NCBI RefSeq assembly: GCF_965641715.1
Contig: NZ_OZ282453.1
Reading direction: 5' to 3' (one strand)
Length of the DNA: 64,000 bases
Source: Escherichia coli
Lineage (GTDB): Bacteria; Pseudomonadota; Gammaproteobacteria; Enterobacterales; Enterobacteriaceae
Positions within the stretch are counted from its first letter, which is position 1, and every line of letters starts with the position of its first letter. The notes under the pieces are model-generated. The model did not search any database and was not told the origin of the DNA. It was given only the letters and a program-made list of their open reading frames with translations. Shown in pieces: positions 41,952 through 52,550 of this stretch. Made by a program: the position numbers and the translations under genes.

Positions 41952-42974
41952 TTATGTGGATGAAATGTGGATGCCTCCTTTTAACGGATTAAGTGAAATT
42001 GCATCCTGGAGGAAATCAGGAGCGAGGTGCGCATAGGTCATAGTTTGCTGGATCGTGGCGTGCCCCATAATTCGCTGGAGCGTAAGTATATTTCCTCCAT
42101 TAATCATAAAGTGAGCTGCAAAGGTATGGCGTAGAACATGTACTGCCTGCCCTTTTGGTAGATCAGGTTTAACACTGCGAAGCACCTTGCGATATTCCTC
42201 ATAATTGACGTCAAACAAAAGGCCGGATTTCTTTGTTTTGATCTCGCTAACAACTTCATCAGAGACAGGAATAATTCGAACTTTTCCGTTTTTAGTTTTG
42301 TTAAACGTCACGCGGTTATTGATGATGTGTTCCGCGCGCAGATTTTTCGCTTCTCCCCATCTCGCACCAGTACTGAGACAAAGTAGCGTAATCCGCCGGG
42401 CATCACCGCTTACTGCATCCAGTAATTTGGCAATTTCTTCCGTGGTGAGATACGTCATTTCGGGTGATTTTCGTTTCAAAGAGGGGAGGGCGCGGAGCGG
42501 ATTTTCTCCGTGAAATTCCCCGGCATTTGCCAGGAGTGTAAACATTCCTCCGAGATCCGACTCATCACGCCGAACAGTAGACTCTTTTACTCCCAAAGAT
42601 AAACGGGAGCTTCGATAAGCGGCCATGAAACGAGCATTAATCTGGCTAACCCTTGGATCATTCATTTCTTTGATGATTTTTTTCAACCTGGTTAGAACGC
42701 CGTTAGCATATGGCTTATTGCGTCCACCCAATTCCCACCATAACGGAAGCAGATCTGAGAGATGACGTTGCTCTGTTGGCTTTTCAAGCCATTCCTTATC
42801 GTGCATGTGGCTGAGAACATAACGCTCAAAGGCCACTGCATCTGCCTTTTTCTTAAAAATCCGCTGAATCCGACGTCCACTTCGGCCACGCGGTCTAACA
42901 TCCACTTTATACCGTCCACCATCGAGTGCTTTAATTGCCATTGGCAAGCCCTCCGGTGAAACGAGGAAAGACAT
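41952..42974 (-). CDS. int: P2-type tyrosine integrase
   Basis: 340 aa ORF; ...RLKAEHIINNRVTFNKTKNGKVRIIPVSDEV...HVLRHTFAAHFMINGGNILTLQRIMGHATIQQTMTYAHLAPDFLQDAISLNPL closely resembles P2 Int as recalled (catalytic R...HxxR...Y). Confidence 0.93.
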   Translation of the reverse strand: MSFLVSPEGLPMAIKALDGGRYKVDVRPRGRSGRRIQRIFKKKADAVAFERYVLSHMHDKEWLEKPTEQRHLSDLLPLWWELGGRNKPYANGVLTRLKKIIKEMNDPRVSQINARFMAAYRSSRLSLGVKESTVRRDESDLGGMFTLLANAGEFHGENPLRALPSLKRKSPEMTYLTTEEIAKLLDAVSGDARRITLLCLSTGARWGEAKNLRAEHIINNRVTFNKTKNGKVRIIPVSDEVVSEIKTKKSGLLFDVNYEEYRKVLRSVKPDLPKGQAVHVLRHTFAAHFMINGGNILTLQRIMGHATIQQTMTYAHLAPDFLQDAISLNPLKGGIHISST

Positions 42975-47046: not shown

Positions 47047-49869
47047 ATGACGGCAGAGTACATCAGGGACTGGCAACAACCGCGCCACGCAGTGGGACGT
47101 GAAGGAACGGGGATCCCCGTTCCTGAATCCGCGCTTTCCTCCTGGCTGGATGCCTACCGGGCAGAGAACGAGCGCCGCCAGGAAATGGCTGATGCGGCGT
47201 TCTCCGCCACGCCGCTGGGCAACCTGATTAATAAAAGCCTGGATGCACAGGAAAAACAGGACAAAACCATCACACTGGCAGGAGACGCCAGAAAACAGGT
47301 ACGCGGTGCGGTGGATGAAGCCATGGCCTCGCTGCGCCTGCTGCCGTCCTATCTGCGCGATCCGCTTATTCGCCACCTCTCCTTCCTGCGCAAAAAACAG
47401 GAAGCCGATCGCCGGAAAGGCAAAAAGAGCTGGCAGGCTGAACGCTACGCGCGCGGAACCCTGCGCAAAATATTCGAACGTCTGGACCGCACCGACCACC
47501 GCTGGCTGACACCGGGTTATCGCTCCCTTGCCGGACGCGAACGCCTGGATGATTTGCTTTACCTGCCGCAGCTCAACAAGCACCAGATACAGACGCTGGC
47601 CACCATGACGGCGGCGATGTTCAGCAGCACCTTCGAAAAACTCTGCGATGGCTTTGGCGCGACTGATGGCGAGCTGACCATGGATGTAACGCTGAAGGCG
47701 TATCAGATGCTGGCCCGCATGGCGTTACACCTGCACGCCATGCCTCCGCATTATGATGCACTGACAACAGACAAAGACCGGAGGAACGAACCGGACACGG
47801 AGCTGCTGCCGGGCGCAATCCTTCGCCTGACCTGTGCGGAATGGTGGAAACGCAAACTGTGGCTGTTACGTTGCGAGTGGCGGGAAGAACAACTCCGCGC
47901 CGCCTGTCTGGTTTCCAGAAAAACATCGCCCTATCTGAGCCAGGACGCGTTAAGCGAGTTTCGCGCACAGCGCGAGAAAACACGCGATTTCCTGAAAAGT
48001 TTCATGCTGGAAAACGAAGACGGGTTCACGATTGATCTCGAGACGGTGTATTACGCGGGAGTAAGTAACCCGGTTCATCGTAAGGCAGAAATGATGGCCA
48101 CCATGAAGGGGCTGGAACTTCTGGCCGAAGCCCGTGGCGACAAAGCGGTGTTTCTGACTGTCACCTGCCCGTCAAAATACCACGCCACAACAGAGAACGG
48201 TCATCCGAATCCCAAATGGAACGGGGCCACCATGCGCGACTCCAGCGATTACCTGGTTAACACGTTTTTTGCGGCGGTCCGCAAGAAACTGAACCGCGAC
48301 GGCCTGCGCTGGTATGGCATCCGCACGGTGGAGCCTCACCATGACGGCACCGTGCACTGGCATATGATGGTCTTTGCTCATCCGGAAGAAATCGACACCA
48401 TTGTGTCCCACACCCGCGATATTGCCATTCAGGAAGATCGTCACGAGCTGGGTGATGATATTACCCCACGCTTTAAGGCGGAGTACGTCGACGGCTCAAA
48501 AGGCACACCGACCAGCTACATCGCCACCTACATCGGGAAAAACCTGGACAGCCGTGCCGTGGATGGCATCGACCCGAAAACGGGCAAGCCACGCGTTGAC
48601 CACGAAACCGGAAAATCAATGGCCGAGAGCGTGGAACGCGCCATCGGCTGGGCGCGCCTTCATCGGGTCCGCCAGTTCCAGTTCTTTGGCATCCCCTCCC
48701 GTCAGGTGTGGCGTGAACTGCGCCGCCTTGCCAGCCAGATGGCTCGCAACCCGGAAGGACCGCAACGGCTGAAGGATGACGCAATGGACGCGGTTCTTGC
48801 TGCCGCTGATGCCGGATGTTTTGCCACCTACATAGAGAAACAGGGCGGCGTACTTGTTCCACGCAAGGACTACCTGATTCGCACCGCCTACGACCTCGCA
48901 GATGAGCTGAACGATTACGGTGAACAGAGCGTACAGATTTACGGGATCTGGTCACCGCTCATCGGGGAGTCTTCCCGCGTATGCACGCATCCGGACAACT
49001 GGAAGCTGGTAAGACGCAAACCGGAAGCGGAAGACAGCGCCCGCGAAAATGGTTTTGACCTTCAGGGCGGCCCTGCCGCCCCTTGGACTCGTGGCAATAA
49101 CTGTCCCCGTGTACAGGAAACAGGCAACAGCGGGACAGAACAGTCGAAAGAACGGCCAGCACCGTGGCCGCAGCTTCCTGACGGCGTTGACGTGAACGAA
49201 TGGATGCGCTCACTGAAACGGCACGAACGCCGGGCGCTGATGCGTTCGCTTCGTGACAAACAGGCAAAAAACAGCAGTGATGAAATGCAGAGCTGGACAC
49301 AGAGCCGCAAACAGCCACGGCCTTTGCCTGATAACCACGAATTACTCGCTAAAGAATGGCGGGAGTCTGCTGAATCTCTCGGCCTGCATATCGGTGAACA
49401 ACAGATGCAGCACCTGTTACGGGGCGGCAGTCTGTACGTTGACGGCAGCATCATTGCACCGCAGGGATTTGAAATTGTACGCAAACCGGATACCCGCCCG
49501 GACAGCCGAATCACGCAGCTCTGGCAGCGCCTGAGCCGTAATCATGGCGTAAGCAGCACGGAGATCCGCCATAACCCGGTCGCCAGCTATCTGGCACAGC
49601 TGGGGGCATCAGACCCTGAAGCCGCCGCACGCCTGGCATCCACACTTCAGCAGGACCAGAACACCATGAAAACACCCGTTACCGTGCTTTCTGACATGCT
49701 GCGCGCCATCCGCGACGCAGAGCACGCACAGAGAATCAGTGAAACCACTGAACGCGCCAGCCGCAAAGCAGACCTGCTGCGGGGTGGCCTGACCAGTGGA
49801 AACAAAAAACAGACAGAAACGGGATTCACAAATCCCATAAATGAGCAAAAAACGTGCCGCGATATATGA
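47047..49869 (+). CDS. P2 gpA-like rolling-circle replication initiator endonuclease (940 aa)
   Basis: HUH-type motif region ...GIRTVEPHHDGTVHWHMMVFAHPEE...; position after the early ORFs matches P2 gene A; unusually long C-terminal region. Confidence 0.85.
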   Translation: MTAEYIRDWQQPRHAVGREGTGIPVPESALSSWLDAYRAENERRQEMADAAFSATPLGNLINKSLDAQEKQDKTITLAGDARKQVRGAVDEAMASLRLLPSYLRDPLIRHLSFLRKKQEADRRKGKKSWQAERYARGTLRKIFERLDRTDHRWLTPGYRSLAGRERLDDLLYLPQLNKHQIQTLATMTAAMFSSTFEKLCDGFGATDGELTMDVTLKAYQMLARMALHLHAMPPHYDALTTDKDRRNEPDTELLPGAILRLTCAEWWKRKLWLLRCEWREEQLRAACLVSRKTSPYLSQDALSEFRAQREKTRDFLKSFMLENEDGFTIDLETVYYAGVSNPVHRKAEMMATMKGLELLAEARGDKAVFLTVTCPSKYHATTENGHPNPKWNGATMRDSSDYLVNTFFAAVRKKLNRDGLRWYGIRTVEPHHDGTVHWHMMVFAHPEEIDTIVSHTRDIAIQEDRHELGDDITPRFKAEYVDGSKGTPTSYIATYIGKNLDSRAVDGIDPKTGKPRVDHETGKSMAESVERAIGWARLHRVRQFQFFGIPSRQVWRELRRLASQMARNPEGPQRLKDDAMDAVLAAADAGCFATYIEKQGGVLVPRKDYLIRTAYDLADELNDYGEQSVQIYGIWSPLIGESSRVCTHPDNWKLVRRKPEAEDSARENGFDLQGGPAAPWTRGNNCPRVQETGNSGTEQSKERPAPWPQLPDGVDVNEWMRSLKRHERRALMRSLRDKQAKNSSDEMQSWTQSRKQPRPLPDNHELLAKEWRESAESLGLHIGEQQMQHLLRGGSLYVDGSIIAPQGFEIVRKPDTRPDSRITQLWQRLSRNHGVSSTEIRHNPVASYLAQLGASDPEAAARLASTLQQDQNTMKTPVTVLSDMLRAIRDAEHAQRISETTERASRKADLLRGGLTSGNKKQTETGFTNPINEQKTCRDI

Positions 49870-49945
49870 AGCGCGCACAAAACAGGCAAAAGCGGGATTT
49901 AAAAATCCTGTAAACGATTAATTAATCAACATAAGGAAAAGCGAC

Positions 49946-50905
49946 ATGAAAATTTGTATCGACGACGGCTCCACCAACATCAAGCTGGCATGGACTGAGA
50001 ACGGCGAACGCCGCAACGCCATCAGCCCGAACAGCTTCAAGTCGGAATGGTCTGCGCCGTTCGGTGGCTCGCAGCCCGCGAACTACATGCTTGATGGCGT
50101 GCGCTATGGTTTTGATCCGGTCAGCGATCGCTTTGTCCAGACGACCGACACGCAATACCAGTACAGCGATGTGAATGTCATTGCCATTCATCACGCGCTG
50201 GTCAAATCAGGCATCACGCCACAGGAGGTGGATGTGGTTGTCACCCTGCCATTGAGCGAGTATTTCGACACAAACGCACAGCCGGACATGGCCAACATCA
50301 GCCGCAAAAAAGCGAACGTTATGCGCCCGGTGGAGTACCAGAACGGCGAAACATTCACTATCCGTAACGTACGGGTTATGCCTGAATCCATTCCGGCTGG
50401 CTTTAAAGCACTGGCTGACATGAGTCCGCTTGAATCCCTGCTGATTGTGGATTTGGGCGGAACCACACTGGATGTGGCAAAGGTTCAGGGGCAACTGGCA
50501 GGTATCAGCCAGGTGTTTTGCGATCCACACGTAGGCGTTTCCCTGATGGCCGATGCCGTACTGTCGGTGATGGCCACTAACGGTATGCGTATCAGTCACC
50601 ACATCGCCAATACCATTATCGAACATCGCCATGATGAAGCCTGGTTGCGCCAGCACATCCACAATGACGCGCATTACGCCAGCCTGATGGCGGTTATTCG
50701 TGAAAAGGAAGAAACACTGAAACAACGCGTGATCCGCGCGCTGGCGGTTTTTTCGGGTTACGGGCGGGTGATGGTTGTCGGTGGCGGGGCGGAGATTGTG
50801 GCACCCGCTATCCGCGAAGCCTGCGGAGTTAATGCGACTTTCATCGCGGACGGGGTGCCACAGTTTGCTCTGGTTAATGGGCTGTACGCAATGGACAAGG
50901 AGTAA
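49946..50905 (+). CDS. ParM/StbA-like actin-fold ATPase (319 aa)
   Basis: N-terminus MKICIDDGSTNIKLAWTE...ISPNSFKSEW...YQYSDVNVIAIHHALVKSGI...LIVDLGGTTLDVA... matches the recalled plasmid R1 ParM phosphate-1/connect/phosphate-2 motifs; strong RBS. Confidence 0.8.
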   Translation: MKICIDDGSTNIKLAWTENGERRNAISPNSFKSEWSAPFGGSQPANYMLDGVRYGFDPVSDRFVQTTDTQYQYSDVNVIAIHHALVKSGITPQEVDVVVTLPLSEYFDTNAQPDMANISRKKANVMRPVEYQNGETFTIRNVRVMPESIPAGFKALADMSPLESLLIVDLGGTTLDVAKVQGQLAGISQVFCDPHVGVSLMADAVLSVMATNGMRISHHIANTIIEHRHDEAWLRQHIHNDAHYASLMAVIREKEETLKQRVIRALAVFSGYGRVMVVGGGAEIVAPAIREACGVNATFIADGVPQFALVNGLYAMDKE

Positions 50906-50909
50906 ACCA

Positions 50910-51221
50910 ATGACGACTCCAACCAGACGGATAAGTTTCTATCTGAAGCCCGCCGCCGTCAAGAACGAAGGTGAAGCATGCGCCTGGCTGGACAGCCTTA
51001 CACCAGAAGCGCGCAAAAGCGGCCAACGCGTGGCTTTTCTGGCCGGGCTGGCACTTCTGAAAATGAATCCGGCAGAGGCTTACCGACTGGCTGCATGGGC
51101 TGATGATGAAGCGTTATCAGTGACACAAACCAGGACAGAACGCCCCGCGTCACAGCCAGTATCAACCGCACAGATAACCAGTCAGATGGCCGGAAATATC
51201 CGGGCGTTATTTCCCGAATAA
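50910..51221 (+). CDS. ParR-like small DNA-binding protein (103 aa), partner of the ParM-like ATPase
   Basis: ORF 50775-51221 with probable start MTTPTRRISFYLKPAAV...; RRISFYLKP...RVAFLAGLALLKMNP...NIRALFPE parallels recalled R1 ParR (RRTIAFKLNP...RAALTAGLALYRQDP...ILRSLFPKE); 4-nt gap after parM-like gene. Confidence 0.7.
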   Translation: MTTPTRRISFYLKPAAVKNEGEACAWLDSLTPEARKSGQRVAFLAGLALLKMNPAEAYRLAAWADDEALSVTQTRTERPASQPVSTAQITSQMAGNIRALFPE

Positions 51222-51284
51222 CACAACATCAGGGCGCATCCGCCCTGATGACTTTAACCCGGGAACATAAACAAGGGGGACACA

Positions 51285-51620
51285 ATGCAACGCATTGACA
51301 GAGAAAAAGCGCAGCGACTGATTGAGCGGATGGAAGCGCTGGCGAAAGAAGAAAATGTCAACATCCAAAAAATAGCTGAATGTGGCCAGATAGTTCTTCG
51401 TCGTGAAAAAGACCTCAAACAACTGATGTCTGGCGAAACCAGCAAAACATGGACTTCAGGTGAGGAGACGATTTATTGCAGCTTCTGCAATAAATCCCAG
51501 TACGAAGTCACAAAGGTGATTGCCGGACCGTCTGTTTACATCTGCAATGAGTGCGTTGATTTGTGCAATGAAGTTATCAGGAGAGAAGTGACAGACCATG
51601 AAGAAAAAACGCATGAATGA
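51285..51620 (+). CDS. Small protein with C-terminal ClpX-type C4 zinc-binding domain (111 aa)
   Basis: [40 protein letters not shown] is near-identical in pattern to the ClpX N-terminal ZBD ([39 protein letters not shown] as recalled); N-terminal 60 aa predicted helical; own AAGGGGGA RBS. Confidence 0.8.
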
Positions 51621-51786
51621 CGAATTTGACGGCTTTTAATTTTATCGGGGCGCACTGTCGCCCTGCATGGAGAAAAACAATAAAAAAGATGAATAACTGC
51701 TCATGTCAGACGCGCTGCGGGCAAGTCTGGCACCCTGCCCTGTCTCCGCAAAGGCTGTTGTCTTAACACGACAGAGTATGCCAGCA

Positions 51787-52194
51787 TTAAATATAATCTT
51801 CTTCGTAGTCGCTGATTAATTCATTGCCATAATCAGACAGCAATTTCAAAGCAAAGGTAACTTCCTCAAGGGTAGCTATCCCCATTGCTGAAAACACCGT
51901 TAATTTAACCAGCAGCAGGGAGTTTGAAAGTTCGGAAGAGTTCATCATTAAAAATATTGATGCAGCCTGAAAAGCTGTGCGTTTATTCCCATCATGAAAG
52001 GCATGAGCCTTGGCTATACCAATCAAATACATAGCAGCCAGAGCATGAATATCATCAACCCCTTCATAGTAGTGTAGTGTCCTGACGCGATTTAAAGCAC
52101 CTTCAAGTAGCCCGTCATTGGCATTTCCGCTCTGGGGTAAAGTTTCAGCATGGATACGTTCTACTTGTTCTTTTGACAAAAACACTATGTCCAT
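51787..52194 (-). CDS. Doc-like (Fic/Doc family) toxin
   Basis: 135 aa ORF with Doc-type Fic motif HAFHDGNKRTA (HxFx[D/N]GNKR); start overlaps stop of upstream antitoxin-like gene. Confidence 0.8.
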   Translation of the reverse strand: MDIVFLSKEQVERIHAETLPQSGNANDGLLEGALNRVRTLHYYEGVDDIHALAAMYLIGIAKAHAFHDGNKRTAFQAASIFLMMNSSELSNSLLLVKLTVFSAMGIATLEEVTFALKLLSDYGNELISDYEEDYI

Positions 52195-52550
52195 CAGTTA
52201 TCCTCAAGCTTTTTAATGATATCCGCATGTTTTTCTCTTGTACGCTTCATTGCATCTTCAAAAGACAATCCTTTTTTTCTCTGTGCGACAAGAGCTGGAT
52301 GACGTTTTTCCAGATCTCTCACTGCATTTATTAAGAGTGGTTGCTTCATTTTGTTTATTTGATCCCGCAGTTTTTTGGTTTTGCCAAGGACAGCCCGTAT
52401 TTCAGGACTAAGATCAGAACCAGCAAGAACAACATCCTTCCCTCCCTGCGCCGTGATAACGACACTGCCACCGGAAGAAAGGTAATCCAGAATTTCACTC
52501 AGGTTCTCACGAAATTCATCATCAGTTACAGTTTTCATATTCATTTCCAT
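52194..52550 (-). CDS. Phd/YefM-like antitoxin with extended C-terminal region (118 aa; start ambiguous among three ATGs)
   Basis: N-terminal MKTVTDDEFRENLSEILDYLSSGGSVVITAQGGKDVVLAGSDL resembles the Phd/YefM fold; basic C-terminal 60 aa; overlaps doc-like gene (ATGA arrangement). Confidence 0.7.
   Translation of the reverse strand: MEMNMKTVTDDEFRENLSEILDYLSSGGSVVITAQGGKDVVLAGSDLSPEIRAVLGKTKKLRDQINKMKQPLLINAVRDLEKRHPALVAQRKKGLSFEDAMKRTREKHADIIKKLEDN

Follow-up and report, generated by a model that had tools for sequence, protein, structure and literature searches.

A pair of palindromes upstream of parM as a candidate minimal ParR-binding centromere of P88-like prophages in Escherichia coli

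The centromere of pSK41 consists of four 20-bp repeats, and that of pB171 consists of many short repeats in two sites. In plasmid R1, the centromere parC is composed of two sets of five 11-bp iterons on either side of a promoter core of 39 bp, and each iteron binds about one ParR dimer (PMC2241845). A precedent in a prophage is the AlpA/AlpC/alpS system of CGP3 in Corynebacterium glutamicum, which acts on the excised circular phage DNA and supports its replication (PMC4446434). In this study, we analyzed a stretch of 64,000 nucleotides from E. coli (contig NZ_OZ282453.1 of assembly GCF_965641715.1), referred to here as the window, which contains an element that is 96 to 98% identical to phage P88 (Xuanwuvirus, Peduoviridae) and carries the partition genes parM and parR downstream of gene A. 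Public records already annotate these genes as ParM and a partition protein, and the searchable literature notes them but describes no centromere for the P88-type partition genes. From the comparison of sequences, we lean with moderate confidence toward the interpretation that two palindromes upstream of parM form the minimal centromere to which ParR binds in a compact type II partition cassette of this P88-like, P2-family prophage, and that they may also serve as an operator.

A repeat search of the window identified a 42-nt direct repeat at 49803 to 49844 (copy 1) and 49876 to 49917 (copy 2), with an identity of 79% and a start-to-start spacing of 73 bp. Copy 1 begins with an A-rich left flank, continues into palindrome 1 (49819 to 49838; ACGGGATT-CACA-AATCCCAT, with seven of the eight arm pairs complementary), and lies within the 3′ tail of the gene A open reading frame (ORF). 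Copy 2 contains palindrome 2 (49892 to 49911; GCGGGATT-TAAA-AATCCTGT, six of eight pairs) and is located in the 76-bp gap between gene A and parM. No strand is assigned to the repeats or the palindromes; the 53-bp core between the palindromes (49839 to 49891), read on the plus strand, contains the stop codon of gene A (49867 to 49869) and a weak promoter-like combination. The 22-nt sequence shared by both copies, CGGGATTNANAAATCCNNTAAA, has exactly two matches in the 64 kb when up to three mismatches are allowed (at 49820 and 49893), against 0.06 expected by shuffling, and two matches were reached in none of 100 shuffles. A single palindrome with 6-bp arms is not significant, as GGATTN4AATCC with at most one mismatch has four matches in the window against 2.3 expected, and the repeats are significant because two copies of the same sequence adjoin, not because of either palindrome alone. 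The first-pass annotation of this DNA had reported two repeat sequences about 25 bp long and about 70 bp apart, the first of them in the 3′ end of gene A. Both sequences are present there, and the stop codon does lie downstream of copy 1; the repeat is thus real, and what changes is its length (42 nt), with a spacing of 73 bp.

The strongest evidence that the repeats travel with parMR is a natural swap, seen in the sequences of related prophages. The prophages of E. coli SA31-1 and Ec-U9-2 (L100 and L101) have the same gene A, with parMR exchanged for genes of an AAA ATPase and of an S8 peptidase. Their homology to the window stops at 49757, which is 46 bp before copy 1, and GGGATT-N4-AATCCC with up to two mismatches is absent from both prophages. 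Because these parMR-less prophages of the same type have no homology past 49757, the left edge of the parMR cassette (plus strand) can be placed at 49758 to 49802. Because the exchange of parMR removes both repeats, we conclude that they are part of the parMR cassette, whose start is at about 49758, and not of gene A or its origin. In a third prophage (L102), parM and parR are reduced to a stub of 165 bp and a single fused palindrome is present. The last 37 or so codons of gene A (49758 to 49869) are located inside the cassette and are wholly different in the prophages with other cargo and in Hafnia. This tail is probably an incidental read-through of gene A into the cassette and not a functional part of protein A.

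The repeats were then compared in about 90 related loci, which comprise 80 IMG/VR loci, several further loci selected for their divergent ParR alleles, and loci from Cronobacter, Citrobacter, E. albertii, and Hafnia. Such a comparison had been named as a check when the repeats were first noted, and it finds them conserved, position included: both copies occupy the same two positions upstream of parM, and no further copy occurs in the fetched 4 to 6 kb. In one complete 34-kb phage genome, the palindrome pair occurs upstream of parM and nowhere else. The inverted repeats first described as GGGATT-N4-AATCC(C) are even borne out as a perfect 8+4+8 palindrome in the relatives, where the consensus of both copies is ACGGGATT-N4-AATCCCGT; the window copies deviate slightly from this consensus. 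The consensus of palindrome 1 is ACGGGATT-CACA/CACG-AATCCCGT, and that of palindrome 2 is ACGGGATT-TCAG/TAAA-AATCCCGT, with the N4 variants TAAA, TCAG, TGAA, and CCAG. Nucleotide diversity is 0.06 to 0.08 in the arms versus 0.14 to 0.26 in the 4-bp centers, and conserved arms around a hypervariable center would be the pattern expected of a protein that reads the arms and not the center. Copy 2 is the better conserved, with near-invariant arms and highly variable spacer positions 49901 and 49903, and the least conserved stretch is the center of the inter-palindrome core (49857 to 49876). The most diverged relative is that from Hafnia, with 92 to 94% identity in ParM and 74% in ParR. It retains both GGGATT-N4-AATCCC cores intact and the 73-bp spacing, whereas the flanks and the 20 bp midway between the copies have diverged; its gene A tail is unrelated, and the gene A stop lies inside the center of palindrome 1. 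Searches with ParM and gene A in phage, plasmid, and species-representative genome collections found no intermediate relatives or outgroup, and the identities drop from at least 92% to at most 53% for ParM or at most 42% for the C-terminus of gene A.

Downstream of the repeats, parM (49946 to 50905, plus strand) encodes an actin-like segregation ATPase of 319 amino acids. Its ATG at 49946 is preceded by the ribosome-binding site AAGGA at 49933 to 49937. The Pfam domains StbA_N (4e-82) and ParM C-terminal (3.5e-68) together span the full length of the protein, and the match to the structure of R1 ParM (1mwk) has an E value of 7.5e-94. Directly downstream of parM, parR (50910 to 51221, plus strand) encodes a ribbon-helix-helix adaptor of the ParR/StbB family with 103 amino acids (PF10784, 1.6e-24). 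A profile of ParR homologues matches the solved ParR of pB171 (2jd3; E value of 4.6e-12), the AlphaFold model has a predicted local distance difference test score (pLDDT) above 90 across residues 11 to 60, and the N-terminal 56 residues are 34% identical to R1 ParR. Both ends of ParR are conserved, with TRRISFYLKP at the N-terminus and NIRALFPE at the C-terminus. A C-terminal helix is predicted at residues 86 to 100, and the motif at N96, NIxxLFP, is common to plasmid ParRs and is a putative ParM-binding segment. Judged by these matches, ParM is a true homologue of the plasmid R1 protein and ParR a true homologue of other ParR proteins, and both are members of the type II partition family. The ParR alleles in three otherwise near-identical prophages (L082, L084, and L086) have only 50 to 57% identity to the window ParR, next to ParM proteins with 97 to 98%. 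These alleles retain the N-terminal TRRISFYLKPAAV and the C-terminal NIxALFPE, and the palindromes are unchanged across them. The first 20 or so and the last eight residues of ParR are invariant and the linker is hypervariable, which suggests recombination or diversifying selection in the middle part.

We therefore regard a cognate ParR site as the best explanation of the repeats, because ParM and ParR are homologous to known partition proteins, the repeats are co-inherited with their genes, the position is unique, and the geometry of the palindromes is plausible. The first-pass annotation had put forward such a parC-like site tentatively. Its cognate-site proposal is supported in part, by true ParM and ParR homologues and by repeats that travel with parMR and occur only at this position; the site is not built like R1 parC. 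Its further idea of an operator is especially uncertain, as neither the repeats nor the stretch between them contains a convincing promoter. Dimers of the ribbon-helix-helix fold sit in successive major grooves at a 10-bp register. In each 20-bp palindrome, the inverted hexamer subsites GGGATT and AATCCC have centers 10 bp apart and would thus face successive major grooves on one side of the helix, where two ParR dimers could bind side by side. The spacing of 73 bp is close to seven helical turns and would place both ParR tetramers on the same DNA face, flanking the 53-bp core. Once on the DNA, ParR would use its conserved C-terminal helix to catch ParM filaments by their ends. The target of the system may be the circular, extrachromosomal form that the phage genome takes after infection or excision, which would be positioned or segregated, and the AlpAC/alpS system of prophage CGP3 is a precedent for action on excised circular DNA (PMC4446434). 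ParR bound at the palindromes may also dampen the expression of parMR. We infer ParR binding, its stoichiometry, the centromere function, and the regulatory role from these features, and the cis site probably works like parC even though it lacks the iteron array of that centromere.

Several observations weigh against this interpretation. The upstream regions of parM from R1-type, IncL/M, IncF, and IncI/K plasmids and from phage D6 were used as parC controls, and all five showed 10- or 11-bp autocorrelation (z of 2.3 to 4.3) from tandem direct iterons, against a z of at most 1.2 in the P88-type region. The tandem direct iterons of 10- to 11-bp period that characterize parC upstream of parM are thus not found at the window site, and an R1-style iteron array is ruled out by this test with its positive controls. 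Unlike the ten 11-bp direct iterons of R1, the site has two 20-bp palindromes with four putative subsites in inverted pairs, in line with the earlier caution that the repeat count is far below the ten of R1. The direct repeat is extended by a 17-nt A-rich flank on one side only, which a symmetric protein site leaves unexplained. A consensus scan of the repeat region found no sigma-70-like promoter on either strand, which leaves autoregulation unsupported. The best combination in a lenient scan (3/6 and 4/6) pairs TGAGCA at 49842 with either TATATG at 49863 (15-bp spacer) or TATGAA at 49865 (17-bp spacer), and TGAACA-16-TATAAG was read by eye at the same place in Hafnia; parMR may equally be expressed by read-through from the early operon. 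The DNA-reading N-terminus of ParR is invariant in the lineage, in alleles with identities down to 50%, and there is no room for covariation between ParR and its site. The left arm of copy 1 is GGGACT, a mismatched arm, in about 38% of the distinct sequences. Finally, the arm diversity of 0.06 to 0.08 among close relatives is not below the synonymous-site baseline of 0.06 to 0.10 in the flanking genes. Because the conservation of the arms does not exceed that of synonymous sites, these relatives are weakly informative, and the argument for selection on the arms comes from the Hafnia comparison and the arm-versus-spacer contrast only.

The last two of these points would also fit a functionless relic, that is, a partial 73-bp duplication with a chance palindrome that has been kept because the lineage is young. 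Close relatives are 96 to 98% identical, so their conservation is mostly uninformative, copy 1 is degenerate in many of them, and the repeat pair can be lost: a clean 73-bp deletion, evidently due to recombination between the direct repeats, has fused both into one palindrome in two relatives (L023, at about 2420 to 2500, and L102, at 2900 to 2960). However, one of these two single-copy variants, L102, is the prophage in which parMR itself is cut to a stub. Hafnia keeps both cores and their exact spacing in spite of the divergence of the 20 bp between them and of the gene A tail, and the variation falls in the 4-bp centers and spares the arms. We consider a relic unlikely.

It is also conceivable, and we think rather unlikely, that the palindromes are minus-strand intrinsic terminators or the 3′ ends of antisense RNAs, which would stop leftward transcription before gene A. 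A terminator scan has a minus-strand hit at palindrome 1. The minus-strand hairpins have folding energies of −8.4 kcal/mol (copy 1) and −4.3 kcal/mol (copy 2; z of −0.96) in the window and about −10 kcal/mol in the relatives, where they are followed by the U-rich tail UUUCUGUCUGUUUUUUG or UUUUCGCCUGUUUUG. The 17-nt extension, when read on the minus strand, is such a U-rich tail and would be explained in this way. However, copy 2, which has the better U-tail, forms the weaker hairpin in the window, and its common variants, found in 39% and 23% of the distinct sequences, leave C-A mismatches in the minus-strand stem. Among the 16 stem pairs, compensatory changes are absent, the covariation score is the same as for shuffles, and the palindrome region has no Rfam match at E values up to 1. 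The minus strand has no promoter-like site downstream and no gene until 51787, and any leftward transcript would first meet a stronger GC-rich hairpin at 51227 to 51250, between the Phd/Doc genes and parR.

A third explanation is that the palindromes are sites for another protein, a host factor or a phage protein, that by chance lie within the parMR cassette. The palindromic shape would suit helix-turn-helix dimers equally well, and there is no sign that the palindromes and ParR have changed together. However, the sites are gained and lost with parMR, independently of gene A and the remainder of the phage, the cassette encodes ParM and ParR only, of which ParR alone has a DNA-binding fold, and the motif has no further copy in the window or in the whole phage genome. 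We judge this explanation quite improbable. A role at the origin for protein A is unlikely in particular, as the sites are missing from parMR-less prophages whose gene A is the same. A P2 replication origin was accordingly rejected as a candidate: the prophages that share gene A have no palindromes, and, as a weaker point, a P2 nick-site sequence is absent from the window.

Very improbable, finally, are plus-strand mRNA stem-loops between gene A and parM that influence the early transcript in its processing, stability, or translational coupling, because, although the plus-strand folds reach −7.1 and −8.8 kcal/mol (z of −3.5 and −2.6) and the copy 2 variants of the window still form G-U pairs on this strand, the common copy 1 variant breaks a plus-strand pair in 20 of 56 distinct sequences, no U-tract follows the folds, and the absence of compensatory changes, of covariation above that of shuffles, and of an Rfam match holds here as well.

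The prophage that carries the putative ParR-binding site has the gene order of P88, in which the integrase, the C repressor, and Cox are followed by an early operon that points rightward and continues past gene A into parM-parR. The integrase gene of the window copy lies at 41952 to 42974 with other ORFs to its left, and this copy is therefore taken to be integrated. The window is 100% identical to E. coli strain RM10740. The same DNA occurs in 1371 of 5426 complete E. coli genomes, where it was located at 1530 places on chromosomes versus two on plasmid records, and its carriers include O157:H7, O104:H4, ST131, and UTI89 records. The low-copy extrachromosomal carrier by which type II partition is recognized is thus not found here, the element being almost always chromosomal. 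It has been suggested that P88 may have episomal as well as integrated states (PMC7969092). One record (L103; NZ_CP148288.1, 1 to 34461) contains a whole P88-like genome as a circular "plasmid" of 34,461 bp from an E. coli isolate from a cat, with the integrase, parMR, and all virion genes. This circle may represent an episome, or no more than an excised copy that was picked up in the assembly. A blastn search for the same DNA in plasmids found P88-like elements only. We put forward tentatively, as a speculation with a small chance of being right, that a minimal centromere of four subsites lets an integrating phage of the P2 family persist, or actively partition, as a circular episome, i.e., as a facultative phage-plasmid.

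The genes on both sides of the site complete the picture of the locus. Gene A (47047 to 49869, plus strand) is a 940-amino-acid ORF for a replication endonuclease of the P2 rolling-circle type (Pfam Phage_GPA, 2.3e-131). To the right of parR is a hot spot for cargo genes (51285 to 52550), which was compared in loci L082 to L087, L100 to L102, L104, and L105. The window has an ORF with only a ClpX zinc finger (51285 to 51620) and a Phd/Doc toxin-antitoxin pair on the minus strand (51787 to 52550) in this slot, and the relatives have an ORF of 167 amino acids, an ORF of 351 amino acids with an ASCH protein, a helix-turn-helix (HTH) protein with a PIN protein, or an HTH protein with a Peptidase_M78 protein. 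The GC-rich hairpin at 51227 to 51250 has 10 pairs (CATCAGGGCG-CATC-CGCCCTGATG) and starts 6 bp past the parR stop codon. It is a candidate for the end of the parMR transcript and could block leftward transcripts that come from the Phd/Doc genes.

If ParR binds the palindromes, we would know of no smaller natural centromere of type II; it would be built from inverted subsite pairs and not from a long array of direct iterons, and the number of ParR dimers needed to cap a ParM filament could be addressed on a simple substrate. The cis element would then be defined for a segregation cassette present in those 1371 of 5426 complete E. coli genomes, and the suggested alternation of P88 between episomal and integrated states (PMC7969092) would become directly testable. 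If the phage-plasmid proposal were also true, actin-type segregation would operate from a centromere far smaller than the 10-iteron model of R1. If ParR does not bind, the palindromes would be an ordinary leftover or a weak terminator of little interest.

Compared with known partition systems, the locus shares with R1 parMRC the order of cis site, parM, and parR, the Pfam family of ParR, and the C-terminal motif of ParR. As in R1 parC, two separated blocks flank a core, which are bound by ParR in R1 and are putative sites here. However, the R1 core has a clear promoter, whereas the core here has no convincing promoter and contains the stop codon of the upstream gene, and R1 is a low-copy plasmid, whereas the host here is an integrating prophage. 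A likeness of AATCCCGTAAA to the R1 iteron AAACCCAAAAA was dismissed, since both sequences are A-rich and the match covers only a single arm of each palindrome; phased A-tracts, a by-eye impression of helical phase only, were given no weight. The centromeres of pB171 (PDB 2JD3) and pSK41 (PDB 2Q2K) are multicopy direct repeats and differ in this from the window palindromes. The closest homologues of ParM (about 52%) are those of the IncL/M and IncF plasmids, which have the parM-parR operon in common with the window and whose ParR N-terminus RKCSFYIYP resembles RRISFYLKP of the window ParR. Their ParR proteins are longer (140 to 147 versus 103 amino acids), and, unlike the window, they have direct iterons of 10 bp, CTGTATTTTTC, arranged in tandem on both sides of a recognizable TTTACA/TAATAAT promoter. 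In the IncL/M plasmid with the closest ParM (L089, 760 to 880; 52.6% identity), two CTGTATTTTTC blocks are 73 bp apart, the same distance as between the window palindromes, which may be a coincidence or a conserved geometry. The AlpAC system of CGP3 differs from the window in its unrelated protein lineages, in having the adaptor gene first, and in its 24 short alpS repeats (TTAAnnG). It is similar in that a prophage encodes an actin-like filament protein together with a DNA-binding adaptor, which in CGP3 binds repeats beside its own operon.

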